This document shows, one piece after another, positions 15,350 to 53,702 of a DNA stretch of 64,000 nucleotides. Source of the DNA: Bacillota bacterium. Its GTDB lineage: Bacteria; Bacillota; Proteinivoracia; UBA4975. The notes beneath the pieces were generated by a model that saw only the letters and a list, made by a program, of their open reading frames with translations, was not told where the DNA came from and searched no databases. Made by a program: the position numbers and the translations under genes. The DNA lies in the NCBI GenBank assembly GCA_050949165.1, contig JBMNFF010000001.1:1059185-1123184 (forward strand). The letters are read 5' to 3'. Every line of letters starts with the position of its first letter. Position 1 is the first letter of the stretch.

Positions 15350-15874
15350 TCAAACCTGCGGCTCGATCAGGCCGTAGTTGCCGTCCTTGCGCCGGTAGAC
15401 GACATTGGCCTGGTTGGACTCGGCATTGGTAAACACGAAGAAGTCGTGTCCCAGCAGGTTCATCTGCAGCACTGCCTCGTCGGGAAGCATGGGCTTGATG
15501 GCAAAGCGCTTGGTCTTGACAATCCTCGGTTCGTCTTCATCCCAGATTCTGCCGTCTTCACCGGCAGCCAAGCCGGTTTGCCTAGCTTTGCGGTTGATTC
15601 TGGTCTTGTATTTGCGGATTTGGCGCTCCAGTTTCTCCACCACCAGGTCGATGGAGGCATACATGTCCGCCGATTCCTCTTCTGCCCTGATCAGCATTCC
15701 GCCATTGAGCAAGAGCATCGCCTCTACCACGTGGGATTCCTTGACCACACTGAGGGTGACCTGAGCTTCGGTGTTGGCATCAAAGTACTTGGCTATCTTC
15801 CCTATTTTCTTTTCCACATGAGCCCTGAGCGCGTCTGTTATTTCGATATTCTTACCCCGAGTAGTAATCCGCAT
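15350..15874 (-). CDS. hpf: ribosome hibernation-promoting factor (long form)
   Basis: MRITTRGKNIEITDALR start with AAAGGAG RBS; HPF N-domain plus C-terminal dimerisation domain. Confidence 0.9.
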   Translation of the reverse strand: MRITTRGKNIEITDALRAHVEKKIGKIAKYFDANTEAQVTLSVVKESHVVEAMLLLNGGMLIRAEEESADMYASIDLVVEKLERQIRKYKTRINRKARQTGLAAGEDGRIWDEDEPRIVKTKRFAIKPMLPDEAVLQMNLLGHDFFVFTNAESNQANVVYRRKDGNYGLIEPQV

Positions 15875-15973
15875 ACAACCAACTCCTTTCAGTGCTGTAC
15901 TATATTTATTCCCCAAATCCCCATGAAATCCTGCCAGTAAAAACTAAAATCCCGCCGAAGCGGGATGGTTAGT

Positions 15974-16171: not shown

Positions 16172-16482
16172 TAAAACTTACCTCCAAAAATGATGTAGCT
16201 TGTAAAGCTCGATTCATCCTACCATAGTAAAAAGGCCAATGTCAATTTTACCGAAAAAACTGTCAATGAAGTCCGACAGCTGACCTGGTCTTTGCCCCCA
16301 CACTCGCCTGCTGGAGGGTTCGCGCTAACTACTGCCTCTCTCGGTTTTCCCGGCAGGACTTACTTCTAAGCCGCACCATGCTCGGCAGTTGGTTTTTTTT
16401 GCTGCCTTACGTGGGTCGTTTCGCCTGCGACTGGCCTCGACTTTCAACCACAGACCTGTCAGACATCATTAGAGTAACGTAT

Positions 16483-20914: not shown

Positions 20915-22105
20915 TTATTCTTCCAGTCCTGCCTCCCGGCGCAGCACCTCGGCCTTGTCGGTCTTTTCCCAGGGCAGGTCCAAGTCGGTGCGGCCCATGT
21001 GGCCGTACGCAGCGACCTGCCGGTAGATGGGGCGGCGCAGGTTCATGTCCCGGATGATGCCGCCGGTGCTGAGGTCAAAGTGCTTGGCAATCAGCTCTTC
21101 TATCTTGGCATTGGGCACCTTGCCGGTGCCGAAGGTCTCCACGCTGATGGAAACCGGCTGGGCCACGCCAATGGCATAGGCCAACTGCACTTCGCACTTG
21201 TCGGCCAGGCCGGCGGCCACCACATTCTTGGCAACCCAGCGGGCAGCATAGGCCCCGGAGCGGTCCACCTTGGTGGGGTCCTTGCCCGAGAAGGCGCCGC
21301 CGCCGTGGCGGGAATAGCCGCCGTAAGTATCCACGATGATCTTGCGCCCGGTGAGTCCGGCATCCCCCTGGGGTCCTCCCACCACAAAGCGGCCGGTGGG
21401 GTTTATGTAGTACTTGGTCCCGGCATCCAGGAGGTCGGCGGGGATGGACTTCTTGACCACTTCTTCGATGATCTCCTCCCGCAGCCGCTCCAAGGGAATA
21501 TCCGGCTTGTGCTGGGCCGAAACCACCACGGTGTGGACCCGGGCAGGCTTGCCGTCGATATATTCCACGGTGACCTGGGTCTTGCCGTCGGGACGAAGGT
21601 AAGGGAGAATCCGCTCCTTGCGCACCTCGGCCAGGCGCCGGGCCATGGTATGGGCCAAGGCGATGGGCATGGGCATCAATTCCGGGGTCTCAGCGCAGGC
21701 AAAGCCGAACATCATCCCCTGATCCCCTGCCCCCACCTGCTCGCCGTCTTTCTGCTCCCTGGCCTCCAGGGCTGTATCCACCCCCAGGGCGATGTCCGGG
21801 GACTGCTCGTCGATGGCAGTGAGGACGGCGCAGGTATCCCCGTCAAAGCCGTACTTGGCCCGGGTGTATCCGATTTTGCGCACTGTGTCCCGGACCAGGG
21901 AGGGGATGTCCACATAGCACTCGGTGGTAATCTCTCCCGTCACCAGGACCAGGCCGGTGGTGACCATGGTCTCGGCGGCTACCCGGGCATAGGGGTCGGC
22001 TTCTAGTATCGCATCTAAGATGGCATCGGATATCTGATCGGCGACCTTGTCGGGATGGCCCTCGGTAACTGATTCGGAAGTAAACAAGAACCTGTCAGCT
22101 TTCAA
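20915..22105 (-). CDS. metK: S-adenosylmethionine synthetase
   Basis: [19 protein letters not shown] and other MetK motifs; start moved to TTG at 22105 ([11 protein letters not shown]) preceded by GGAGGTG. Confidence 0.95.
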
Positions 22106-22144
22106 TTCCAACACCTCCACAAATATTCTGCTCAAACTGGCAAC

Positions 22145-22266
22145 AAAAAACCCCTTCAGGTTTGAAAGGGTTCGTCACCCCTCATCTGCGGGAATTGGCA
22201 CCGTGCCCCGTGGCCGGTTGCCGGGTTTCATCGGGCCCGCCCCTCCACCTCTCTCGATAAGAGCTC
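22145..22266 (-). ncRNA. SAM-I (S-box) riboswitch with intrinsic terminator, leader of metK
   Basis: minus-strand sequence CTCTTATCGAGAGAGGTGGAGGGGCGGGCCCGATGAAACCCGGCAACC...GGTGCCAATTCC...GCAGA matches S-box consensus; followed by hairpin and TTTTTT. Confidence 0.85.
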
Positions 22267-26333: not shown

Positions 26334-28322
26334 ATGCAATTTGGCAAAGCCCGCCTCAGCTTCCGCGACGCAGGGAGGGCAGAGACAGTGACCTTCTCTG
26401 ACCTGAGCTGCAGCCACCCCCGGCTGCAGGTCTCCCCTCACCTGCAAAAACTCCGCCACGGCGCCGTCCTCACCTTGACCCTGACCGCTTCCGAGCCGGT
26501 GGAACTGGAAGAATTCATCCTGGAGGCCCAGCTTCCCAAGGGGAATATGCTCAGCAACGGTTACCAATCCTGGTCCCGAACCAAGCTCTACCGCCCCGAC
26601 CAATATATGGCTCCCCTCTTCGCCCTGGCCCGGCCCCTGCTCAGTCCTTACGGGGATTACTCCCTGATTCGGCGCAGCGGCCGCCGCGGCCATTTCTTTT
26701 CCTGGTCCTGGACAGGCTTTGAGCAGGAGGGCAACTGGTTCTTGCTGGGTTCCGACGCCGAAGACTGGGGATACACCCTCTTTGAGGTCGATGGACGCCA
26801 GGAAAAACTCTATATCCGCCGGGACTGCCAGGGCGAAATAACCTCGTCCTACCCCCTCCTCCAGCTCTACTACGGCTGGGGCGGTGAAGGTGAGGTGTGG
26901 GATGAATATGCCTCCCTGCTGACCCGCCGACGTCCCAACGCCCGGCGCTGCACCGGCTGGACCAGCTGGTACAACTACTATACAAAGATCGACGAGGAGA
27001 TCATCCTGGACAACCTCCGGGCCCTTTCGACCTCGGGGCACCCCTTCCAGATCTTCCAAATCGACGACGGCTGGCAGGAGGCCATCGGCGACTGGCTGGA
27101 TATCAACGCAAAATTCCCCTCGGGCCTGGCCAGCCTCGCCCGGACAATTCGCCAACGGGGTTTCCGCCCCGGCCTGTGGCTTTCCCCCTTCATTTGCGAT
27201 AAAAAATCCCGCCTGTGGCGGGAGAATTACGACTGGGTCCTCAAGGACGAGAAGGGTCGTCCTGTCAAGGCCGGCTGGAACCCCGGCTGGAATGGCTGGT
27301 TCTACGCCCTGGACTTCTATGCCCCGGGCTTTCAGACCTGGCTCAAGGAGGTCTTTGCCACCATCCTGGACCAATGGGGGTTCCAGATGGTCAAGCTGGA
27401 CTTCCTCTATGCCGTGGCCCTGCGCCCCCACCACGGCCGCTGCCGGGGGCGGATCATGGCCGAGGCCATGGAGTTCCTGCACCAAATCTGTGGAGACAAT
27501 TTCATCCTGGGCTGCGGCGTACCCCTGGCCCAATCAGCGGGCCGGGTGGACTTCTGTCGCATCGGCGCCGACGTGGCCCCCTACTGGGAAGACCGATTCC
27601 TGCGGACGATAGGCTACCGGGAGCGGGTCTCCACCCGCAACTCCCTGGCCAGCACCCTGCACCGGCATATGCTGGACAGGCGGTTCTTCCGCAACGATCC
27701 CGATGTCTTCCTCCTCCGGGACGGCGTCCCCAAGGTCAATGAGAACAAGCTCAGCCTCGCCGAGCGCCATACTTTATTCTTCCTCAACAACCTCCTGGGC
27801 GGCCTGGTCTTCCTCTCGGACCATGTGGGGGAGTACACCCCGGAGCAGCAGGCCCAGCTGGCCGAGATGTTCCCCAGCCTGGAAGCAGAAATAACCCGCT
27901 TCCATTACCAGGGGGAACTGTTTGTAATTGAGTTCCAGGTGGAGGAGCGGGAATACGTCGCCCTGGTAAACTTAAGCCCCAAACCCGCTTACCTCGACCT
28001 ACCCCCGGGCCAGTGGTTCCACCCGGAGCTTAAAGTCTGCACCGGCCACCTGGATTTGCAGCCCCACCAGACCCTCTGCCTGGCCAAGGTCAAGCCCCAG
28101 GCCCAGCCCTATGTGCTGGGGAGCAGCGGCCACCTGTACCCCGGCGCCCAGGTAGAATCCTTTACCCGGGAAGGGGATGGCTGGACCCTGACCCTGAAAT
28201 CCTACTCTTCCCCCCACACCCGGGTCTGGATAGCCCTGCCTGAAGGGATGGAAGAACTGGTGGTCAACGGCACCCGCCCAGAAATCATCCACTGGGGACG
28301 GTTCCCAGTGGCGCAAATCTAA
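26334..28322 (+). CDS. glycoside hydrolase, GH36-like (clan GH-D, alpha-galactosidase fold)
   Basis: QIDDGWQ, GLWLSPF and MVKLDF motifs typical of GH36/GH27 catalytic domain; family assignment by eye. Confidence 0.6.
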   Translation: MQFGKARLSFRDAGRAETVTFSDLSCSHPRLQVSPHLQKLRHGAVLTLTLTASEPVELEEFILEAQLPKGNMLSNGYQSWSRTKLYRPDQYMAPLFALARPLLSPYGDYSLIRRSGRRGHFFSWSWTGFEQEGNWFLLGSDAEDWGYTLFEVDGRQEKLYIRRDCQGEITSSYPLLQLYYGWGGEGEVWDEYASLLTRRRPNARRCTGWTSWYNYYTKIDEEIILDNLRALSTSGHPFQIFQIDDGWQEAIGDWLDINAKFPSGLASLARTIRQRGFRPGLWLSPFICDKKSRLWRENYDWVLKDEKGRPVKAGWNPGWNGWFYALDFYAPGFQTWLKEVFATILDQWGFQMVKLDFLYAVALRPHHGRCRGRIMAEAMEFLHQICGDNFILGCGVPLAQSAGRVDFCRIGADVAPYWEDRFLRTIGYRERVSTRNSLASTLHRHMLDRRFFRNDPDVFLLRDGVPKVNENKLSLAERHTLFFLNNLLGGLVFLSDHVGEYTPEQQAQLAEMFPSLEAEITRFHYQGELFVIEFQVEEREYVALVNLSPKPAYLDLPPGQWFHPELKVCTGHLDLQPHQTLCLAKVKPQAQPYVLGSSGHLYPGAQVESFTREGDGWTLTLKSYSSPHTRVWIALPEGMEELVVNGTRPEIIHWGRFPVAQI

Positions 28323-28464
28323 ACCTGCGACAACAGGGATGTTTCAGATCGTCTCAAAATCCATCTCCGCACGCTCCCGGAACCAGGGAGGTAATCGGCT
28401 CTCGAGACGGCGCCCATAACACAACGGAAACAAATTTGAGACAGGTGCACGCGTCCCCGCTGTA

Positions 28465-29118
28465 TCATTGCGAAGGGAAAAAGTGCTGCATTGCCCTATT
28501 TTTATTTTCTTGTGACAGCTTAGTTATTTCATTGGATCGGTGGATATTATTTAATCTATACCTAACCCAAGCCGGAAATATCTCTTTCATGTCCTGGGCA
28601 TACAAAGAGCCGTCCCTGGGAAACTGTTTCCCGATTACCGTAAATCCGCCGTTGGTTAAATCCACTGTAACCAAACAGGGCATGGATGAACCGCTTTCCT
28701 TCACGACTCTTCCCTGTTGGGGAAAATAAATTTCCTCCAGCACCCAGAGGTAAACCTCCACCTTTTCATCTGAAATAAAAGAGTATCCATAGATTCTAAA
28801 GGATGCAAAGCTTTCTGCATTATCCGATTTGGCATGCCCCGCTGTCAAATATTCCTGAATAACTTTGATATTATCCTCAGCAAAGGACATGTTTCTTTGC
28901 TTGCCAAATAAAGTAATCATTTCACTAACGTTTCTACCCTTTTTCGCAACCTTATAGCCTAGGCCGATGTAAATAATTGCTTCATCAGTATCGGAAGTCC
29001 GAATGCTGAATATCGGATTTTTATTAGCCAGAAATCTGTAATAGTCCACTCCGAATAGTATGGTCCACGCAACCAAAATAACCAGACCAAAGAACAACAG
29101 TTTGCGTTTTAGTAACAA
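28465..29118 (-). CDS. hypothetical membrane-anchored protein encoded in an AT-rich insert
   Basis: 217-aa ORF, TTG start with AAGGGG RBS; N-terminal TM helix; local GC clearly below flanks. Confidence 0.5.
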   Translation of the reverse strand: MLLKRKLLFFGLVILVAWTILFGVDYYRFLANKNPIFSIRTSDTDEAIIYIGLGYKVAKKGRNVSEMITLFGKQRNMSFAEDNIKVIQEYLTAGHAKSDNAESFASFRIYGYSFISDEKVEVYLWVLEEIYFPQQGRVVKESGSSMPCLVTVDLTNGGFTVIGKQFPRDGSLYAQDMKEIFPAWVRYRLNNIHRSNEITKLSQENKNRAMQHFFPSQ

Positions 29119-29144
29119 TTATATTTCCCCTTAATCATTAGATA

Positions 29145-29168
29145 TGGCCAAGAAATATTTCTTGGCCA
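29145..29168. promoter_or_regulatory. 24-bp perfect palindrome TGGCCAAGAAATATTTCTTGGCCA upstream of the AT-rich-island gene
   Basis: about 27 nt upstream of the TTG start at 29118; candidate operator or terminator. Confidence 0.4.
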
Positions 29169-29400
29169 CTAGCCTCTATCTTCTAACCCTAGCGTACTTA
29201 GGGATATTGTTCTCCCAGCCGTTTACGGAACTACTTGTCCAAGCATGATAGTTGCTAGTGTGTTGAGCTACCTTATAGTCATAATAAGTTTTCCAGAATA
29301 TTGTACTCCTTATTATTTTATAATTTAACTATATTGCTACTTGATTAACATTTCAAGTATTTATATACAATAAATTTTTGTTTTAAAAGGAGGCATTGAA

Positions 29401-39625: not shown

Positions 39626-39904
39626 TTAAAAGATATTTTTGCATCAGCCAGAGAATGCGCAACCTGCGGTTCTAAACTAGCTCTACTGCCTTAAATGAAT
39701 AGCCGGTAAACCTATTCTTTTCGAAAACATCTTTAAACTGCTCGGACACAAAAAACCTTTGCTTATAATCTTTCAAACGAATAATATCAAACCCTAGAAG
39801 TTTTTCCTTCTGCAATACATATTTGATATTTTACAGATGTTAAGCTGGTAGGACCTGCTGATGGCCAAACAGATTGAGGGAGCTTGTGTAAGCTCCCTCG
39901 TTTC

Positions 39905-41023
39905 TTATTCCGCTAATATCTCTACATTGGCCCGGGGCACGGTGACCCGCTGGCCGGTATCCAGGGTGACCTCCAGGACCCGGACCTTGGCCTCGCTCTC
40001 GATTTTCTGCAACTGCACCGGGAGGGCGCTGACCGCCCCCAGGCGGCCAAACCAGGGGGTGCGGATTACCCGGACCCGGGTCCCTATTTCCAGCCCGGTG
40101 GCGGCGGCCTCTGCCTGGACCGCTGCTCCGCCGGGCCGCGCCACCACCACTTCGGGACGCAGTACCCCGGCCCGAATCTGGGTGGTCCCGTTGATGGAGG
40201 CCGTCTCGCCTGCCAGCTTCTGGAAAAGAGCGAAGGTCTTCTCGGCCATGGGTATTTTGCCGAAGCCCTCGGTGACCACCAGGGAAAGGGGAATGTCCTC
40301 GTGGCCGGTGATGGCCACCCCGATTTCATAGCCCAGGTATTCATGGAGGTCCCGGTCCAGGACGCCGCCGCTGACCAGACCCACCACGCCAACTTCGCCG
40401 GCCCGCTGCAGGGCGTCGGCGGTGACCAGGGCTCCGCCTACCAAGATGCGGCCCCGATCCCCGTCCAGGATCTGCCGGGCAGTGAGGGTATCGGTGGGCT
40501 TTTTCACCGCAATGCGCAGCGTGCCGCAGCCTTCACCGCCGATGCCGAAGATGCCCTGAATCAGGGCGGCGGGGGTCTCCACCACCACCCCTTCCCTGGG
40601 CAGGACCTCGGTGACGGTGCCGGAGATATACGCCTTCACTGCCACCGGCGCCGCCGGTTCCCGAATGGTGACCTGGCCGGTTACGGAGGATATGTGCTCA
40701 ATGGTTCCCGTGGCCGGGGACTGGCACTGCCCCCGAAAAAGGCCGAAGAAAGCAGAATAACGGGCGATTACCTCCCCTTCCCGGACGCTGTCTCCTACGG
40801 ACTTGACCATGACCTCATCAATTTCCGAGGGCTCTATATTCAGCTGGTTGGAGACCGCCACCAAGTGGGGGCGGCCGGGAATAAAGGCCTGGGCCACAAT
40901 TGTTTCCGGCTCTACCCTCATGCCCCGCTCGACCAATACCTCCCCCTTCAGGGGCAGGCGCCTGGCCTTGCGGATAATGGTTCCCTCACTGACTGTCAAG
41001 CCTGGCAAATACGCGTCGCTCAT
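39905..41023 (-). CDS. hypothetical protein, last gene of 7-gene operon
   Basis: 372-aa ORF, start overlaps stop of upstream GlmL-like gene; Gly-rich segments, no recognised family. Confidence 0.5.
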   Translation of the reverse strand: MSDAYLPGLTVSEGTIIRKARRLPLKGEVLVERGMRVEPETIVAQAFIPGRPHLVAVSNQLNIEPSEIDEVMVKSVGDSVREGEVIARYSAFFGLFRGQCQSPATGTIEHISSVTGQVTIREPAAPVAVKAYISGTVTEVLPREGVVVETPAALIQGIFGIGGEGCGTLRIAVKKPTDTLTARQILDGDRGRILVGGALVTADALQRAGEVGVVGLVSGGVLDRDLHEYLGYEIGVAITGHEDIPLSLVVTEGFGKIPMAEKTFALFQKLAGETASINGTTQIRAGVLRPEVVVARPGGAAVQAEAAATGLEIGTRVRVIRTPWFGRLGAVSALPVQLQKIESEAKVRVLEVTLDTGQRVTVPRANVEILAE

Positions 41024-42822
41024 AATTTTCCCCCCACCAGCATCGGGTACATTCCCACCTGCTCATACCATTTGAGCAGCTGGCGCACCCGGGTTTTCTC
41101 GTCTTCCGCCAGGAGCAGGGGCCGCCCCCGGCAGTCCAGGAAGAGTCCGCACGCGCCCCCAGCCAATTTCCGGCGCAAGGTGCGGCCCCGGCCGGCGCCA
41201 ATATTGGCTCCCCCCTGGGGATGAAGCTCCACCTGGAAGGGGCCCTCCCCGGAAATTAGCTGGATTTCTCCCCAAGCCACGTCCACAGCGGCACTGCCTT
41301 TGTCCCACTTGACGGCGCCGCGAATTGCCCGCTCGCCAATTCGGCCCCTGCCTGCGGGCGCCACTACGGTGCCCAGGTAAATGAGGCAGTCCTTCTCGAA
41401 GACCTGGGTGGCTCCCTGGGGATGAATCTCCGAAAGCACACCCAACTGGGGCATCATGAAGATGCTATCCACCGCCAGCCGGGTCACCCCCTGGGGCTGG
41501 AAGGCGTCCACCATCATCATGGCGCTCTGGACCCGGCGCGGGGCGTGGGAAAGGGCGCCGCCGCTGCCCACCAAGAGATCCAGCTCCAGCATGTCGATGA
41601 AGGTTTCCTCGCCGCTGGTCTGTTGGAAGGCATCGCCGATGGAGCGCTGGCGCTGTACTCCCCGGAGCCCCACCGCCAGGGTCTTGTGATGGGCAAAGGC
41701 CAGCCCCAAGGCCTCCCGGGCGATGGCCTGCTCGATTAAGAGGTCCTCCAGGGTGTGGGGAATGGTGGTGGGGCGGATCATCTTGTTGCGGATGCGGTTC
41801 TTCAGCTCCGCCGGGGCGATGCTGAAGGGCAGCCAGCGCAGAATATTGTCTATCCCCGTTTCCACCAGCACATTGCACACGCTGTAACTCATGCCCAAAT
41901 TGGCGCTGACGGTGCGGTTAAAGATCCCCGCAAACATGGAGAACACGTCGGTGGTAGCGCCGCCGATATCCACGCCGATGACATTGATTCCGTTTTCCCT
42001 GGCCACCGTCTGGATAATCTTGCCCACCGCCGCCGGCGTAGGCATGATGGGGGCATGGGTCCAGTCCAGCAGCTTTTTATAGCCCGGGGCCTGGGCCATG
42101 ACATGCTCCATGAAGAGATTGTGGATTTCCTCCCGGGCAGGACCCAGCTCCTCCTTCTCCAGCACCGGCCGGATATTGGGGAGAAAGCGCAGGTCTGTCT
42201 TATCCCGCAGGAGTTCTCCCACCTGGGGTTGGGCATGGGTGTTGCCGCAGTAGATTACCGGCAAATTGTAGCCGCTGCCCAGACGAGGCCGGGGATCCGA
42301 GGCGGCGAGGATTTCCGCTATCTCCACCACATGGGAGACGGTGCCCCCGTCGATGCCCCCCGCCACCAGAACCATGTCGGGGCGGAGCTGGCGGATGCGC
42401 TCGATCTTCTGGTAAGCCAGGCGTCCATCGTCCACGGCAATGGTGTCCATGACGATGGCCCCGGCCCCCAGGGCCGCCCGCTGGGCGCTCTCGGCGGTCA
42501 TCTTCTTGACCACCCCGGCCACCATCATCTGGAGGCCGCCCCCGGCGCTGCTGGTGGCCAGGAACAAGTCCACGCCCCGCTCATCCCGGGCGGGAGTGAT
42601 GATGCCTCGGGAATCCATAAATACGCGTCCCGTCAATTCCTCCACTTCCCGGATGGCATTCCTGACCCCCATGGTCACATCTTCAAAGGGCTTTTCCACC
42701 GTGGTGGGAGCTTCGCCTCGCACCTGCAGACGGTACTCCCCCTGGACCAGTTCAATGAGTATTGCCTTGGTGGTGGTGCTTCCACAGTCCACAGCCAGGA
42801 TTACCTGAACAGGTTTATTCAA
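41020..42822 (-). CDS. GlmL/MutL-family protein (ASKHA-fold ATPase-like), long form
   Basis: motifs shared with glutamate mutase accessory protein GlmL as recalled: DCGSTTTK, SSAGGGLQM, QRAALGAGA, GGIDGG, EPAREEI, IMPTPAAV, VDIGGATTD; about 130-aa C-terminal extension. Confidence 0.7.
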   Translation of the reverse strand: MNKPVQVILAVDCGSTTTKAILIELVQGEYRLQVRGEAPTTVEKPFEDVTMGVRNAIREVEELTGRVFMDSRGIITPARDERGVDLFLATSSAGGGLQMMVAGVVKKMTAESAQRAALGAGAIVMDTIAVDDGRLAYQKIERIRQLRPDMVLVAGGIDGGTVSHVVEIAEILAASDPRPRLGSGYNLPVIYCGNTHAQPQVGELLRDKTDLRFLPNIRPVLEKEELGPAREEIHNLFMEHVMAQAPGYKKLLDWTHAPIMPTPAAVGKIIQTVARENGINVIGVDIGGATTDVFSMFAGIFNRTVSANLGMSYSVCNVLVETGIDNILRWLPFSIAPAELKNRIRNKMIRPTTIPHTLEDLLIEQAIAREALGLAFAHHKTLAVGLRGVQRQRSIGDAFQQTSGEETFIDMLELDLLVGSGGALSHAPRRVQSAMMMVDAFQPQGVTRLAVDSIFMMPQLGVLSEIHPQGATQVFEKDCLIYLGTVVAPAGRGRIGERAIRGAVKWDKGSAAVDVAWGEIQLISGEGPFQVELHPQGGANIGAGRGRTLRRKLAGGACGLFLDCRGRPLLLAEDEKTRVRQLLKWYEQVGMYPMLVGGKL

Positions 42823-42872: not shown

Positions 42873-43502
42873 TTATAGAATCGACAGCCACTCACCCAGC
42901 AGGAAGTAGATCCTGCCTACCAGCAAGGACATTCGGGCCATGACGGTGTTGCCGAAAGACGCTCCGAAGGCGATCATCATCACCCACTTGCCGATGCTGG
43001 CACCGACCTTCAAGGGGCCCTTCTGCTCCCGGGAGAAGTAGAAATAGATTAGAGTCCCCAACACACCCAGGATAAAGAGCAGGGAGTCGATGCCGAACTT
43101 GGACATCACGCCCCAGAGGGGCAGGGCCATGGTGGAGGTAATCTGGCTCATAAAGGAAGCCCCGATTACGCCCCGGATGGCCAGGGCACTGCCGACCCCG
43201 ACGACAAAGCCCAGGGGAATACGACTGATCCACTTCCCCGTCTTTAAGAAGCGGGTGTAGAGGAGCACGCCCAGGACCAGGGGCACGATCATAATCCACT
43301 GGCGGGGCTCACCCTCGGCCGGATTGACGAGCGGATTCCACGCGTTGGTGACTATGGACTGGTAACCATAAAAGATGCCGATCCCCGCCGCTAACCCGAT
43401 AAACAGGTGTTCAGCAGTGCGGTAAAAGGGGTTTTCTCGGAGCAGGTAGCTGAGAATAGCCAAAGTGCAGAGGGCGCCTATCCAAATTCCCAAGGTTTCC
43501 AT
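42873..43502 (-). CDS. polytopic membrane protein, unknown function
   Basis: 209 aa, 5-6 hydrophobic helices. Confidence 0.5.
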   Translation of the reverse strand: METLGIWIGALCTLAILSYLLRENPFYRTAEHLFIGLAAGIGIFYGYQSIVTNAWNPLVNPAEGEPRQWIMIVPLVLGVLLYTRFLKTGKWISRIPLGFVVGVGSALAIRGVIGASFMSQITSTMALPLWGVMSKFGIDSLLFILGVLGTLIYFYFSREQKGPLKVGASIGKWVMMIAFGASFGNTVMARMSLLVGRIYFLLGEWLSIL

Positions 43503-43536: not shown

Positions 43537-44373
43537 CTAATCCTTCTTCTTCCTGCCCACGGCGACATAGGCGATGTTGCCGATGAGGATCAGGGCAATT
43601 ATCACCAGGTGGGAAATGGACTGGGCATCCATTCCGCCCAGACCCAGCCCCGGCCGGTCCACCAAGACCTCGTACTGAGCGGCGCCGCTCATACCCGCCA
43701 GCAGGCCCACCAGGTCTCCCGACTGGAGATAGGGGAGCATGCCGGGAACGGAAACGGCAGTGACGCCACCGGTGATGGTGACGGGATACTGAGAACCGAT
43801 CTGCTCGATATAGGTCCGAAGACCGGGATCACCGGCAGAAAGGCAGATAATCAAGTCTATGTCCTCGATGGTCTTGATATCCTTCATCATGGGGATGCTG
43901 CCCGTCCGGGTCCGGGTGACGTCCTCGGGGAAGGTGGCGTGGATATCCCGGGCCAGGGAATTGAGGACCACGGCCTGCCCCGGGCGATAGCCCAGGTTGA
44001 CATAGTCTTCGCCGTACACCGCCTCCAGTTCGGGAGCGACGGCATTGTGGACCCTGTCGGCAAAGGTGGCGCCCTGGTTCCATAGGGCCACGGCCACTAA
44101 CTTGTGCTTCTTTTCCAGGATGTGCCTGGTCACGGCTTCGGCCTGAGGCAGGAGCTCCGGAGCGCTGGCGGCATCCCAGTCATAGGACAGCAACACCACC
44201 GAACCGGCGGGCAGCCTATCCACCAGGTCATACACCGCCTGGGTGTTTGCGGTGATGTCAACTGGGAGTCCCAATGGGAAGAGCAGGGGCAGGACGATGG
44301 ACAGGAACAGGAGCAGGTAGATAATCCGCCGGTCGATGGTCTGCAGTTTTTCCAACCACTTCACTGATTTCAC
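43537..44373 (-). CDS. bitopic membrane protein with extracytoplasmic domain, unknown function
   Basis: N-terminal and C-terminal TM helices flanking about 200-aa soluble domain. Confidence 0.5.
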   Translation of the reverse strand: MKSVKWLEKLQTIDRRIIYLLLFLSIVLPLLFPLGLPVDITANTQAVYDLVDRLPAGSVVLLSYDWDAASAPELLPQAEAVTRHILEKKHKLVAVALWNQGATFADRVHNAVAPELEAVYGEDYVNLGYRPGQAVVLNSLARDIHATFPEDVTRTRTGSIPMMKDIKTIEDIDLIICLSAGDPGLRTYIEQIGSQYPVTITGGVTAVSVPGMLPYLQSGDLVGLLAGMSGAAQYEVLVDRPGLGLGGMDAQSISHLVIIALILIGNIAYVAVGRKKKD

Positions 44374-44402: not shown

Positions 44403-45032
44403 CTACTGCCCGCCAAAATACGATCTGTCGATGCCAAAGATTACCCGCAGGGCCGTCACTATAGCGCCCAGGGAGGCGCCGATCATGATTCCCCGCATGC
44501 CGGCGGTGGTAAACACCGTCTGCAGCCAGCCCGAGTATTCGGGAAAGCCGCTCCATATTTTCGCTCCCACCGGAGTCGCTCCCAACATCACCACCACGGC
44601 GGAAATCAGGAGCACTGTGGCCTCCTTGGTCCTGATCCGGAAGGCCCTGTACGCAGCCGAAGCGATATAGAAGGCCAACAGGGCAAACATCGTCCCGTTG
44701 AGATGCTCAAAGATATTGCTGAACAGGTACTGGTAAACGGCGTTCTGCTGGGTCCAGATAATGGGGATTACGGCCATGACCACCATAGCCACCAGCAGGA
44801 TCAGGCTGTTCCACCATTCCTTCTTGCGCTTGACAATCCTCTGCACGTGAATCCGCAGGAGATTGGCTGCCCCCAGCAAGAGGGCAAAGGCGGCGATGAC
44901 TATTGCCCATTCCAGGAAGTGACCAACCACATATTCGGAGAGGAAGGGAATCTTGACAAAGTAGTCCAACAAGAACAGGATGCCCGCCACAAAGGTAATG
45001 GCAATTGGAACTTCGCGACGCACTTCTTTCAC
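44403..45032 (-). CDS. polytopic membrane protein, unknown function
   Basis: 209 aa, same length and similar hydropathy pattern as 42873-43502 product. Confidence 0.5.
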   Translation of the reverse strand: MKEVRREVPIAITFVAGILFLLDYFVKIPFLSEYVVGHFLEWAIVIAAFALLLGAANLLRIHVQRIVKRKKEWWNSLILLVAMVVMAVIPIIWTQQNAVYQYLFSNIFEHLNGTMFALLAFYIASAAYRAFRIRTKEATVLLISAVVVMLGATPVGAKIWSGFPEYSGWLQTVFTTAGMRGIMIGASLGAIVTALRVIFGIDRSYFGGQ

Positions 45033-45089: not shown

Positions 45090-45887
45090 TCATGACGAGA
45101 ACTTGACCAGGAAGTCGCAGATTACCGGCCAGTTGAAGGTGGTGGTGATGGTGCCCACCACGATCAGGATGATGGCAGCGATCTTGCCCAGGTCCTGGAC
45201 CTTGATTCCTGCAACCTGCATGGGATCCTGGGAAAGATAGGCGCCGGCGGCAAAGAGCTCTTCTCCAATCAGGCAGTAATCGCAGGCGGCAATGAAGAAG
45301 GGAAGCTGATGGGTATTGGCAGTGCCCGCCACCTGGATGGAGCCCGACACAAAGCCGCCCTCGGCAAAGATCAGGGATTCCGCCCAGAATGCTCCCATCA
45401 TGATGTTGGCGGCCACCTTTTCCCGGGCCATGATCCCCATACATCCGGCGGCATAGGCGAATTGCTCGTCGGACAGGAAGCGGATATTATCGGGGTTATA
45501 GGACTCCGGCTTGCCCTCGGTGAGGTAGCTCTGGCGCACCACCTCCTCGCTGATAGGCAGGACCTCGGGCATCCTGTTGGTGACGATAAGATCGGTGTCG
45601 TACTTGGCCGTCAGCCGGGACACATAGCCCAGGACCGCCAGCCCTGCCAGGGTTTGGGCTGCCGTCTCTTCGCTGAGGGCGGCGATGCCGGGGCTGAAGT
45701 GCACCGGGCGCCCCATCTCGGTGGCCCGGCCTACAGCTTCATCAATGGCCTCCAGACCGCTGATGCGGCGGATAAAGAACTTCTTGCCCTTTTTGGCCTG
45801 CTTGATGGTGATGAGCAGCACCACGGCAATCAGCAGGGCAAACACCAAGAGCGCCAAGCGATTGACCACAAAGATCTCTTCTAACAC
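45090..45887 (-). CDS. membrane protein, unknown function
   Basis: 265 aa with N- and C-terminal hydrophobic helices. Confidence 0.5.
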   Translation of the reverse strand: MLEEIFVVNRLALLVFALLIAVVLLITIKQAKKGKKFFIRRISGLEAIDEAVGRATEMGRPVHFSPGIAALSEETAAQTLAGLAVLGYVSRLTAKYDTDLIVTNRMPEVLPISEEVVRQSYLTEGKPESYNPDNIRFLSDEQFAYAAGCMGIMAREKVAANIMMGAFWAESLIFAEGGFVSGSIQVAGTANTHQLPFFIAACDYCLIGEELFAAGAYLSQDPMQVAGIKVQDLGKIAAIILIVVGTITTTFNWPVICDFLVKFSS

Positions 45888-46174
45888 TGGGTTTTCACCT
45901 CCTTGCCTTTGTTTCTATCCAACTCCTCGAGCCGGGAGATCAGCCTCTCCACCTGCTCCCGGTCGCCGATGAGGTTGGCGAAGTCCTCGGTATTGGCCTC
46001 GCCGAAGATCCAGTCCAGCCCTGGCGCCGCAATCTGGATCAGGGCGCCGCCAACACCAGCCAGGGGCTTGTGCATTTCCAGAAACATTATTGCGGGAATG
46101 GTCAGACCATGGCGGTTGATGCGTTGGGCGATTCTTTCCGTCAGCTGATTCAGGCGTTCTTCCATACAATTCAC
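45881..46174 (-). CDS. small protein with one hydrophobic segment, first gene of operon
   Basis: 97-aa ORF overlapping next gene by 7 nt; start codon uncertain. Confidence 0.4.
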   Translation of the reverse strand: MNCMEERLNQLTERIAQRINRHGLTIPAIMFLEMHKPLAGVGGALIQIAAPGLDWIFGEANTEDFANLIGDREQVERLISRLEELDRNKGKEVKTQC

Positions 46175-50403: not shown

Positions 50404-51399
50404 TTAATTGCTGAGTTCCGCCCTAAGCTGCAAGACCTCAGATATGGGAAGCTCAGACACTTGCGCCACTTGCTCAGGAGTAAATCCCAGCCGGAGCGCA
50501 TTTCTGGCTGCTAGTCTCTTTGCCTCCAGAATCCCTTCAGCCCTGCCCTCTGCCCTGCCTTCTGCCCTGCCTTCAACCCGGTACTTCTGCCAGGTTTCCT
50601 GCAAGATTCGTTCAAAATTAGTTATCAATGATTTTCCCCCCTTCCTTCTCAAATGGATCAGGACTCGATCACGGTCGTGTTTCTCCATTCCCTTTAAGAG
50701 TACCTTACCTGTCCACCTAGAAAAACGCCGTACATCTTCTTCCGGCATCTGATCCAAGACTGCAGCAAGCTCACCGATTCCAAACAGCACCTCATCCATC
50801 CCTCTGTGTTGCTCCATATAGAAGACACTACCCATCAAATTGCCCAGGGCAAGCAGCTGGCCCTTGCCATATCTATTTACATCAACGAGGATGTATTTAA
50901 AATCTAATGCGTATTTGCTAAAGAACTGAAATCCTGCCTGACATTGGCTAAAGCTTGTCCCCGCCGTCCATTTGCCTTTCCCATTGTATAGCACGCACGG
51001 GACAATAACCGGCAGAGCGAAACTCCCTTTACAGGCAACCTCATTGAACCAATAATTGCGCCAGATTTCCACCATATACATCAATAAACGAAAGGGCATC
51101 ATTTGATCGACGGTAGATTGCAATTCCAGCAAGAGATAGAAGTATACATCTTGCTCGGCCAAACGAAGCCTGTAGATCAGATCGGCCTCTTGGTGCCGAA
51201 AGTCCTGTAGTATAAAGGATTTTGGAATAAGCATTACGTCTTTCGCCTGAATGCCCTTGACCCACTCTGCCTTAACAAAGGTCTGCAAGAATTGCAGAAA
51301 GGTCGACTTATTGGCCAGCAAATACTTGTACCCCGTATCATGCTTATTGCTGGGGACCGCATATTCCTGGTCTGGCTCCCTAACCAAGGCTAAGGACAT
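50404..51399 (-). CDS. Rpn-family (YhgA-like, PD-(D/E)XK) recombination-promoting nuclease / putative transposase
   Basis: N-terminal HDxxYKxL and nuclease core pattern, C-terminal repeat-containing domain (EGRA x3-4 then LGFTPEQVA...LP) as in E. coli Rpn proteins; start moved to MSLALV at 51399. Confidence 0.7.
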   Translation of the reverse strand: MSLALVREPDQEYAVPSNKHDTGYKYLLANKSTFLQFLQTFVKAEWVKGIQAKDVMLIPKSFILQDFRHQEADLIYRLRLAEQDVYFYLLLELQSTVDQMMPFRLLMYMVEIWRNYWFNEVACKGSFALPVIVPCVLYNGKGKWTAGTSFSQCQAGFQFFSKYALDFKYILVDVNRYGKGQLLALGNLMGSVFYMEQHRGMDEVLFGIGELAAVLDQMPEEDVRRFSRWTGKVLLKGMEKHDRDRVLIHLRRKGGKSLITNFERILQETWQKYRVEGRAEGRAEGRAEGILEAKRLAARNALRLGFTPEQVAQVSELPISEVLQLRAELSN

Positions 51400-51524
51400 A
51401 GTAGCCGCCGCCTTAATAATAATGTTAGCACAGTTTCCAATAATATAATATAGGAACACGTGTTCCCTGTCTAGCTTATCTTTTCTCTGATGGTAGCAGA
51501 AATAGAGTCTCCAATTAAGCGGGT

Positions 51525-51773
51525 GGGGCTGTCGCAAAATGAGATATTCGTACATATTCTCCCGAAAATCTCTCCGGGTAGGGGCCGAAAGTATAAAGAA
51601 GGAGCTGTCGCAAAACTAAATCTCCGCGCATATTACCTCAAGAAAATCTCTGTGGGTGGGGGCCAAAAGATCCCCCTATAAAGGTAATCCAATGTAGGGG
51701 CGGGTTTTCCCGCCCGACTCACAAGAATGGCTAATTGGGGAATATGGCGGATTGCCAGTTTTGCGACAGCCCC
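51525..51773. mobile_element. MITE-like element bounded by inverted GGGGCTGTCGCAAAA(T/C) termini, with internal partial duplication
   Basis: left terminus 51525-51541, internal direct copy 51601-51616, inverted right terminus 51758-51773; no ORF. Confidence 0.55.
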
Positions 51774-51779
51774 TTGCTT

Positions 51780-53702
51780 TTACGCCAAGGCCTTTTCTAT
51801 TTCCGCCATGGCCCTTTCCTCCAGGTCGCAGCATTGCCGGACCAAGGCGAGGACCGCCGGAGCCTTGCCAGGGTCAAAGGCCTGGCCCCCGGGCCCGGTA
51901 AAGGGGACCAAGCGGGTTATCTCCTGGTAATTCGCTGCCACCTGGCGGTAGAGGTCAATTGTACCCTCCAGGCCCTTTAGTTCACCGGACCGGGCGGCAA
52001 CATACTCCAGGTATTTGGCGATGCAGGCCTTGGAGTCAGCATAGACGTTGAGATTATAGGCCAGGCCGAAGGGGTCGTAATCTCCCCGTTCCAAAGTGCT
52101 TATGAGATTGGCATAGGCCTTTCTGCCGCAGGCATACCCGGGAGTCGAGTGCTGCTCTTTATTCCACTCCCTCAAGCCGTATTCCAGGGAATCCCGATAG
52201 ATCTTCTCCGGGTCGACCTCCACCCTGCCCTTGAGAATCTGCACAAACAGGTATGGAACCTCGGATATGCCCAGGTTGCCATAGCTCAAGGGATCCGGAT
52301 CTGAGTTGAGGCAATCTTGAACAAACAAAACTTCATCGCCGTCATCATAACCGTCAATCAGGCCAAATTCCAGGAGACCTGTCGGCGCCCAGGTGATCGC
52401 CGGCACCCCCCTGGCTATGGATGCTTTGATCTTTGCCAGGGCATCCTCCTGAATCATATGGAAAGTGTTGAGCCTGGGGTCCCTGAAGACCAGGACTATT
52501 TCGCTGTGCACGCCAATCCTGTCCAGCATGGTGAAATGCTCCATCCCCCAGTCGTACACCGTCACCGAGCTGGGGCAGGCCGTTTCGTGCACGATGAAGT
52601 GAAAGGCCATCCCCGTCATGCCCATGAGTTTATAGATCTCGTCCTGCCACCACTCCACCTTGCGCAAAGCGCCGTCCACGCTGGCGATATATGAGTTCCA
52701 GGTCATTCCCATCTTCGCACCCAGTCGCATTGCCGCATCAGTACCTCCTTTAACAGGTTGTGGCTCCATTATAATCGACGGGGTAGGACATAAAGTGTCG
52801 CACCCCTCAGGCATATTTGCCAAAATCATCTTTTGTAGCCTGGAACAGAAGCGCTGCCGTAACCAGCGGGGTGAAAGAAGGGTAAATTGTTCTACCCCGG
52901 CTATAATTGCCGCCAGAAATTTGCTGGAATTTGTGAATTCCACTCTGTAGACCTGAGGCTCTCCAGAGGGAGATACCCGCAGCCCCGCCTTTCTCAACTG
53001 ATTCTCCCCCTGGGTTTTTACAAGGGCCACATAAGGCCTGCGGTAGTTAAAGTCATCTTTATATTCCTCCGGATCAAACCAGGGAACGATGGTAAACTCC
53101 TCGTCCCGAACCAGGGCGCCTCTTATCCGCTCCAGTTTAAAGATGCGGACCTCCCCGCGGAGTTCACAATACCCGACCACATAATTGCCATCCCCCTGAC
53201 AGAAGAATTTATAGGGGCAGATGATCCTGCGGGATTTTACCCCCGCGGCGCTGACATACTCTATCTCAACTTTATGCCTCGATTGCATGGCTTTGCTGAG
53301 GAGCTTATATGCCCTGACCTCCCGGGGACCGGGATTGATAATTGGTAAATTCCTCTCGCCTTCGCAGTTTCCTTCCCCGCCCAAGCGGGCAAAGAGTTGG
53401 GCCAACTGCCGGGCCTGTCCACCTTCCCTGTTTCGGTAGTGGAAGGCCAGGTAATCCAGGGTGGCCTTTTCTTCTGCCGAAATAAAATTGGCCGGCAGGA
53501 TAAAAGCTCCCCCTCGGTAAAAATACCCGTTGTTCCTGGGACAATATGCAACGGGCGCCCCCAGGGAGTAGCGCAAGTACTCAATATCCCGGGAAGCCTG
53601 GCGGGTAGAAATCTCAAATTCCTCGGCAATAATTCGGCAATTGGGATACCTGCCATGGCGAATCTGCTGGTCAATCCAGAGTATCCTGTGTAAGCTGCTC
53701 AT
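51780..53702 (-). CDS. HTH-WYL domain regulator fused to about 340-aa uncharacterised C-terminal domain
   Basis: N-terminal HTH (NCRIIAEEFEISTRQASRDIEYL), WYL-type beta domain (RRIICPYKFFCQGDGNYVVGYCELRGEVRIFKLERI), continuous 640-aa ORF; ATG with GGGGGTGA RBS. Confidence 0.65.
   Translation of the reverse strand: MSSLHRILWIDQQIRHGRYPNCRIIAEEFEISTRQASRDIEYLRYSLGAPVAYCPRNNGYFYRGGAFILPANFISAEEKATLDYLAFHYRNREGGQARQLAQLFARLGGEGNCEGERNLPIINPGPREVRAYKLLSKAMQSRHKVEIEYVSAAGVKSRRIICPYKFFCQGDGNYVVGYCELRGEVRIFKLERIRGALVRDEEFTIVPWFDPEEYKDDFNYRRPYVALVKTQGENQLRKAGLRVSPSGEPQVYRVEFTNSSKFLAAIIAGVEQFTLLSPRWLRQRFCSRLQKMILANMPEGCDTLCPTPSIIMEPQPVKGGTDAAMRLGAKMGMTWNSYIASVDGALRKVEWWQDEIYKLMGMTGMAFHFIVHETACPSSVTVYDWGMEHFTMLDRIGVHSEIVLVFRDPRLNTFHMIQEDALAKIKASIARGVPAITWAPTGLLEFGLIDGYDDGDEVLFVQDCLNSDPDPLSYGNLGISEVPYLFVQILKGRVEVDPEKIYRDSLEYGLREWNKEQHSTPGYACGRKAYANLISTLERGDYDPFGLAYNLNVYADSKACIAKYLEYVAARSGELKGLEGTIDLYRQVAANYQEITRLVPFTGPGGQAFDPGKAPAVLALVRQCCDLEERAMAEIEKALA

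Follow-up and report, generated by a model that had tools for sequence, protein, structure and literature searches.

In a 64,000-nucleotide stretch of a Bacillota genome (assembly GCA_050949165.1, contig JBMNFF010000001.1, positions 1,059,185 to 1,123,184; hereafter the window), a 600-aa open reading frame (ORF), which we call gene F (41020-42822, minus strand), represents a divergent branch of the GlmL/MutL family, an actin-fold ATPase that may serve a membrane complex. F starts with TTG, has a ribosome-binding site (GGGAGGTGG) 5' of the start, and is the sixth of seven genes, A-B-C-D-E-F-G, that lie head to tail on the minus strand of the window with gaps of at most 60 nt or with overlaps. 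The reading that we favour, with a probability of about one half, is that F and G are obligate partners in a complex on the inner side of the membrane, an ATP-switch module that drives or gates the membrane proteins B to E.

F matches the Pfam MutL profile (PF13941) with 420.2 bits (E=1.3e-125) against a gathering threshold of 27 bits, its residues 8-479 covering profile positions 1-450 of 450. Given that the match extends over the full profile, the GlmL motif series that a sequence-only reading of this DNA had noted in the 600-aa protein is no chance match. E. coli O157:H7 Sakai, which has a glmS-glmL-glmE-mal operon, supplied the reference GlmL. By BLASTP, F and this GlmL share 26% identity across 443 aligned residues (E=2e-30), with the motifs DxGST, GGxDGG, DxGGATTDV and GSGG of the two proteins in register; the motif matches are thus not spurious. 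The ATPase core of F (residues 8-479; 41386..42801, minus strand) carries an inserted flavodoxin-like domain at residues ~86-215. Its phosphate-1, phosphate-2 and adenosine motifs are invariant across 36 homologues and, together with the two-lobe actin fold, they provide the hallmarks of the ASKHA family. We conclude that F is a member of the GlmL/MutL (PF13941) actin-fold (ASKHA) family which, judging by its motifs, should be competent to bind nucleotide.

The alignment with E. coli GlmL stops at F residue ~480, and the remainder therefore forms a C-terminal extension of ~120 aa (residues 481-600; 41023..41382, minus strand). The sequence-only reading had recognised this extension, though its estimate of ~130 aa was slightly too long. 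The extension consists of a beta-rich domain and a terminal helix, includes an invariant D563-x-R565-G566-R567, and is modelled by AlphaFold2 (AF2) with predicted local distance difference test (pLDDT) values of 90-96, the mean for the whole F model being 77.6. It has no counterpart in the GlmLs of E. coli, Peptoclostridium or Rhizobium; it is kept in all listed homologues of F, in the paralogue F' and in the fusion forms described below. A relationship between the extension and G was considered and rejected (hhalign probability 0.2%).

F scores below the curated cut-offs of three NCBIfam models for GlmL-type proteins. The GlmL equivalog model NF040745 (NCBIfam) gives F 230.7 bits against a cut-off of 475, with E. 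coli GlmL as control at 510.7. The values for TIGR01319 are 162.6 bits against 204.05 (E. coli GlmL, 898.5), and those for Or-4, the GlmL-related ornithine degradation protein (NF040744), are 212.5 bits against 600 (E. coli GlmL, 255.2); no aminomutase family, the context of Or-4, is present among the window proteins scanned with Pfam. Nor does the 600-aa F match the architecture of GlmL, which has ~460 aa and ends at the ASKHA core. In a neighbour-joining tree, a quick distance tree without support values, F, its orthologues from seven phyla, the paralogue and several fusion forms make up one clade apart from three genuine GlmLs. Hence what F shares with GlmL/MutL (NF040745, PF13941) is the Pfam family, the core with its flavodoxin-like insert and the aligned nucleotide-binding motifs, whereas it differs in its identity of 26-32%, in reaching half the curated cut-off, in the extra 120-aa domain, in having a partner built of barrel-sandwich hybrid (BSH), swivelling and KOW domains, and in being linked to membrane proteins and never found beside glmS or glmE. 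On these comparisons, F is a real but distant relative of GlmL and not its orthologue.

The branch to which F belongs, which we term long-form, is large. When 1.84 billion cluster representatives were searched exhaustively, 2,977 proved to be members of the family, 758 with E<=1e-30, and F matched more than 8,000 clusters, each defined at 90% identity. The strongest 150 of the 2,977 representatives all score at least 312 bits against F, as compared with 111 bits for E. coli GlmL, and thus belong to the long-form branch. Its features are the 120-aa C-terminal beta-domain, an adjacent G, a small A upstream and a frequent linkage to B-E. The relatives of F on plasmids are classical GlmLs only (25-30% identical, matching residues ~3-478 and adjoining glmS); no long-form copies were found on plasmids or phages.

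The long-form branch has no linkage to glutamate mutase or to any B12 enzyme. Window genes were called with a codon-usage model, and a Pfam scan of the 49 encoded proteins that reach 130 aa or more placed none of them in a family of B12-binding proteins, mutases, aminomutases, diol or glycerol dehydratases, or ethanolamine ammonia-lyases (EutBC). Homologues of E. coli GlmS, GlmE and methylaspartase (Mal) were sought with tblastn and phmmer, and none is present in the 64-kb window or within ~10 kb of F in 87 related loci from more than 12 phyla, where the flanks were limited to 10 kb, so that B12 genes or B-E scored as absent may sit elsewhere in the genome, and where a search based on GlmS could miss very divergent B12-binding domains, for which the window itself was checked with Pfam. 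An Rfam scan of the window and three loci at gathering thresholds detected no cobalamin riboswitch. Cobalamin regulation was accordingly rejected, the only Rfam hits being a raiA RNA and a SAM riboswitch elsewhere in the window. Both ends of the operon fall within the window, with a hairpin 3' of G and a divergent ATP-binding cassette (ABC) transporter gene upstream of 46174, which excludes B12 genes of the same operon just outside the window. The terminator-like hairpin (39876-39899, minus strand) lies 6 nt past the G stop and has a stem of 10-11 bp with 6 G-C pairs and a weak T-tail; it matches the terminator consensus only, and is the probable end of the operon. The sequence-only reading had noted the missing mutase and B12 genes and suggested that the branch has a role of its own within the GlmL family; the first point holds for the window and the 87 loci alike, and the second gains support from the scores below cut-off, the separate clade and the linkage to membrane proteins.

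F could still be a cobalamin-enzyme reactivase, similar to GlmL, DdrAB or EutA, that serves a B12 enzyme encoded elsewhere in the genome. The reactivases DdrA-DdrB (PduG-PduH) and EutA are among the closest known systems. A swivelling domain, as in the large subunit of diol dehydratase reactivase, is present here, but on G. Among A to E no family is recognisable except DUF6754 (no search was aimed at a small subunit of the DdrB/PduH type), and no B12 enzyme is encoded nearby. Given that none of the 87 loci encodes a GlmS-type B12-binding domain, GlmE or Mal within ~10 kb, that neither a B12 family among the 49 proteins scanned nor a cobalamin riboswitch is found in the window, that the conserved linkage is to membrane proteins instead, and that every genuine GlmL examined is operonic with its mutase in a glmS-glmL-glmE-mal operon, we consider a reactivase acting in trans very improbable.

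Public names of long-form proteins in NCBI and UniRef, where given, are usually 'glutamate mutase L' or 'methylaspartate mutase' (e.g. P0001, P0015, P0048 and P0063). These labels are over-annotations, and 'glutamate mutase L' invites the false assignment of B12-dependent glutamate fermentation in metabolic reconstructions of metagenome-assembled genomes (MAGs). In the literature, MutL/GlmL is treated as a glutamate mutase chaperone (PMC4682846). Separately, the Dictyoglomus genome paper (PMC5167688) infers glutamate fermentation from 'glutamate mutase (Dtur_1345-1347)'.

Gene G (39905-41023, minus strand) encodes a 372-aa protein in which a BSH domain at the N-terminus is joined by a swivelling beta/beta/alpha domain and, at the C-terminus, by a KOW/SH3-like one. 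The TGA stop of F (41020-41022) overlaps the ATG of G in an ATGA, and G is translationally coupled to F in the window. This coupling, which the sequence-only reading had described for a protein then unknown, is conserved in the branch together with the C-terminal extension of F. The matches of the swivelling domain are RraA (8.7), the mobile domains of phosphoenolpyruvate (PEP) utilisers (~8.5) and the large subunit of diol dehydratase reactivase (7.2), and those of the KOW/SH3-like barrel are Spt5, NusG and eL27 (~8). Two covalent roles were considered for these domains and rejected. A phospho-histidine relay in the style of PEP-utilising enzymes is opposed by H241 of the swivelling domain, which is found in only 23 of 36 sequences and is otherwise Q or S, and a lipoyl or biotinyl carrier role by the BSH domain, which has no invariant Lys. 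Since neither a Lys nor a His acceptor is invariant in G, its mobile domains probably transmit movement and not a covalent group. The closest known system for G is NqrA/RnfC, by virtue of its N-terminal BSH domain; however, there are no Nqr/Rnf membrane subunits here and no flavin or Fe-S motifs, and the swivelling and KOW domains of G are unlike NqrA/RnfC.

The five genes upstream of F are all on the minus strand, and four of them encode membrane proteins. Gene A (45881-46174) encodes 94 aa (94-97 in homologues), in which a hydrophobic hairpin with the conserved motif PAxxFLE..KP precedes a C-terminal helix, and has no match in Pfam, NCBIfam or PADLOC. Gene B (45090-45887) encodes a 265-aa DUF6754 membrane protein (PF20539, E=5.4e-101) in which a hydropathy scan places an N-terminal transmembrane (TM) helix, a cytoplasmic domain of ~190 aa and a C-terminal TM helix. 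In diderms, B homologues have an extra N-terminal signal peptide and FN3 domain, which puts the DUF6754 core on the cytoplasmic side; it could be a docking site for F, G or A. Gene C (44403-45032) encodes a polytopic membrane protein of ~206 aa with about 5 TM helices, without a Pfam family or a relative in the PDB. Gene D (43537-44373) encodes ~275 aa, with a TM helix at both ends and a domain of ~210 aa between them; based on the positive-inside charge distribution, this domain is predicted to be outside the cell and both termini inside. A profile search found 1,045 homologues of D, uniform in length (272-284 aa), all named hypothetical and without a Pfam domain; D likewise has no relative in the PDB. 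Finally, gene E (42873-43502) encodes a polytopic membrane protein of 209 aa with 5-6 TM helices, for which we found no known family and no PDB relative. An anti-phage defence system was also considered and rejected, as none of A-G matches a PADLOC-DB 2.0 defence model at E<=0.01 and no phage or plasmid copies were found.

Fusion proteins and paralogues bear on how F, G and the membrane are arranged. Of the nine long representatives retrieved, six are F-G fusions of 961-1,187 aa, with the G motifs QGIFGxGGE, TEGFG and NGxTQIRAGVxRP in their C-terminal halves. In P0243, P0249 and P0252, a large ectodomain is followed by one TM helix and then by F; the ectodomain of P0249 has an M1-aminopeptidase-like HExxH motif (HEIAHQWFG). 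Furthermore, a paralogous pair, F'-G', precedes A-F-G in Chloroflexota and several Bacillota (F' at L006:5295-7217 and L007:6080-7978, and also in L011, L013, L023, L026 and L042). F' is 51-55% identical to F, and G' has ~450 aa. F' retains every ATP motif and the C-terminal domain, and adds a basic/aromatic amphipathic tail (KGGKKRGGLFSLFRR) which seems to resemble the membrane-targeting helices of FtsA and MinD; some A proteins have aromatic/basic tails like that of F'. The F of the window is without an amphipathic tail, and a single F-G pair is present within the 64 kb. Because F and G are fused into one polypeptide in many lineages, we infer that the two form an obligate complex. The TM-anchored homologues, the tail of F' and the membrane proteins of the cluster, including the cytoplasmic domain of B, would place this complex at the cytoplasmic face of the membrane.

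The tail of F', the fusions of a TM helix to F and the synteny with membrane proteins might hint indirectly at membrane anchoring of the FtsA/PilM type. Foldseek returns FtsA, Hsp70 and PilM for F, after a leading group of lactamases and carboxylases; in fold, F is thus closest to FtsA, PilM and ATPases of the hydantoinase A type, which accords with the favoured membrane module. F might also be pictured as a polymer-forming, membrane-associated actin-like protein (FtsA/PilM/MreB type) that scaffolds B-E, with ATP controlling polymerisation. However, F has no detectable sequence homology to FtsA or PilM, the identity in structural alignments being 9-17%, and the domain insertions differ. The partners FtsN, FtsQLB and PilNOP are unrelated to DUF6754, C, D and E, and neither the flavodoxin-like insert nor the obligate partner G has a counterpart in known actin-like filaments. 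In addition, glutamate mutase, and with it the GlmL-family proteins, is listed among non-polymerising actin-fold enzymes (PMC5597319). We therefore regard a polymer-forming F as quite improbable.

The cluster is conserved far beyond the window. A protein identical to F is encoded with the same neighbours on a Bacillota MAG contig (GCA_964472835.1), where the 94-aa gene A has been called, and Alkalicella caledoniensis has the same seven genes. The order is B-C-D-E-F'-G'-A-F-G in a Chloroflexota MAG, F'-G'-A-F-G in Fermentithermobacillus, and usually A-F-G-B-C-D-E outside Firmicutes. A scan of one genome per species gave more than 572 relatives of F; ORFs in related loci were called crudely as the longest ORF and include some shadow ORFs. 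In the best 80 loci F is 59-66% identical over its full 600 residues, and the lineages represented are Bacillota, Nitrospirota, Latescibacterota, WOR-3, Eisenbacteria, Brocadiaceae, Scalinduaceae, Zixibacteria, Neomarinimicrobiota, Fidelibacterota, Ignavibacteria and Armatimonadota. The A-G module thus recurs, rearranged, in at least a dozen bacterial phyla, including Chloroflexota and anammox Planctomycetota. Queried by tblastn with the seven proteins of the window, these loci show G immediately downstream of F in 53/72 cases and A immediately upstream in 53/79; B, accompanied by one or more of C, D and E, is present in the flanks of 30 of the 45 loci with full flanks. Since this linkage outlasts rearrangement across so many phyla, the genes are likely to act as one functional unit, a phylum-spanning, membrane-associated seven-gene module that the sequence-only reading did not see.

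Two aspects of these loci bear on the part played by F-G. Tandem B-C-D-E sets occur beside a single F-G pair, with three sets in a Zixibacteria locus (L080, 1-9000, minus strand) and two in L018 and L021 (13.5-20 kb); that one F-G pair goes with two or three sets supports F-G as a shared energising module. Also, F is conserved at 60-66% across phyla as compared with 32-56% for B-E. This suggests, as a soft argument from sequence, that F makes many simultaneous contacts, in keeping with a machine or scaffold rather than a catabolic enzyme.

Other genes were seen repeatedly around the cluster. A gene of ~220 aa (cluster 'c7'; e.g. L007:5283-5987), encoding a TM hairpin and a soluble C-terminal domain without a Pfam family, recurs in 19 loci directly upstream of F' or A-F in Bacillota, Eisenbacteria, Latescibacterota and Zixibacteria; the window cluster has no such gene beside it. 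The gcvPB (glycine cleavage), lipoate ligase, fab-operon and tsaEBD genes adjoin the cluster repeatedly in particular phyla, and were treated as lineage-specific housekeeping synteny that carries no functional evidence.

ABC importers are a further recurrent neighbour. In five Latescibacterota loci (L039, L048, L062, L073 and L075), an Opp/Dpp-type importer lies between F and G, in the order F, SBP_bac_5, OppB, OppC, G, B, (C), D, E; the flanks fetched for these loci end at or just after E. Two oligo_HPY ATPase genes follow E in sister Latescibacterota loci, and genes of this kind lie behind the cluster in Brocadia and Marinimicrobia/Fidelibacterota too. ABC importer genes come after E or G in L037, L050, L058, L064, L065, L066 and L071. 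These Opp/Dpp-type neighbours may hint at a substrate that is peptide-related.

In the mechanism that we propose, F would act as an ATP/ADP switch, as has been proposed for DdrA and GlmL, its relatives of the reactivase type. Driven by nucleotide, the two actin-fold lobes of F would open and close and so reposition the BSH and swivelling domains of G as well as the C-terminal domain of F, and these movements would in turn drive or gate a B-C-D-E complex acting in transport or envelope assembly.

The structural matches of F allow a different interpretation, in which F-G would be an ATP-dependent enzyme of metabolism, soluble and of the same type as hydantoinase, oxoprolinase or acetone carboxylase, that phosphorylates a small amide or keto compound or opens its ring, and B-E is the uptake system for its substrate, possibly peptide-derived. 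The best Foldseek matches of F are N-methylhydantoinase, acetophenone carboxylase, caprolactamase and acetone carboxylase beta (2.7e-11 to 6e-8). The hydantoinase A/oxoprolinase/acetone carboxylase beta family (PF01968) also comes near threshold at the phosphate-2 motif, although with 22.6 bits it remains below the gathering value of 22.9 and covers 46 residues only, and TM-scores are ~0.27. The Opp/Dpp genes, interleaved in Latescibacterota and adjacent in Brocadia and Marinimicrobia, would suit such an enzyme, and so would the S58 and C26 peptidases encoded upstream in Fermentithermobacillaceae and the M1-aminopeptidase-like ectodomain fused to F in P0249. The catalytic partner, in contrast, is missing: no Hydantoinase_B (HyuB-type) family is present in the window proteins scanned, including G and the adjacent cluster genes, and the mobile-domain folds of G have no conserved Lys or His acceptor. 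Moreover, an identity of 60-66% across phyla would be unusual for a peripheral catabolic enzyme, and TM-anchored forms of F and the amphipathic tail of F' would be hard to explain. We thus judge a soluble enzyme to be unlikely.

Several observations nevertheless weigh against F-G as a membrane-associated switch module. The Foldseek leaders are soluble ATP-dependent lactamases and carboxylases, which suit an enzyme equally well, and the core of F is modelled with moderate confidence (pLDDT 50-85). B-E are absent within 8-10 kb of F in 15 of the 45 full-flank loci, and F-G may therefore have a function independent of B-E. Profile and PDB searches do not demonstrate membership of any transporter family for B-E; sequence searches of the PDB with F and G, and with profiles of the four membrane proteins, gave no match except the FN3 domain of diderm B. 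Finally, the function of GlmL is itself a matter of inference in the literature, and the library of papers searched had nothing on DUF6754, PF13941, TIGR01319 or the long-form branch.

A wider claim, which we put forward tentatively and with more doubt than belief, is that A-G is a previously unrecognised ancient membrane machine in which F-G powers transport or envelope assembly via four membrane proteins of novel families. It would use an actin-fold (ASKHA) ATPase instead of an ABC, P-type, AAA+ or rotary one, and it would be core housekeeping that is missing from classical model organisms, its carriers being poorly studied phyla (Nitrospirota, anammox Planctomycetota, Latescibacterota, Chloroflexota and many Clostridia-like Bacillota). 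In any case, A-G is a large conserved module in environmentally important organisms, namely nitrite oxidisers, anammox bacteria and anaerobic digester Firmicutes. If it is true that F-G energises B-E, ATP would here be coupled to work at the membrane in a new manner, and F-G could also illuminate the evolution of reactivases of the GlmL, DdrA and EutA type.

Elsewhere in the window, the raiA RNA motif (RF03072, 182 bits; 16271-16464, minus strand) lies upstream of the gene for a ribosome hibernation factor (15350-15916, Ribosomal_S30AE), and the S-adenosylmethionine (SAM) riboswitch (RF00162, 71 bits; 22179-22263, minus strand) directly upstream of the S-adenosylmethionine synthetase gene (20915-22135). 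A dip in GC content to 0.51 at 28300-29400 contains a 217-aa ORF (28465-29118) with atypical codons (GC content at third codon positions, GC3, 0.44), between glycoside hydrolase and MFS transporter genes. The segment 50404-53982, with a GC content of 0.52 versus ~0.60, is probably an insertion of mobile or defence-related DNA; it encodes a YhgA-like transposase (50404-51555) as well as a WYL-domain protein of 640 aa (51780-53702).

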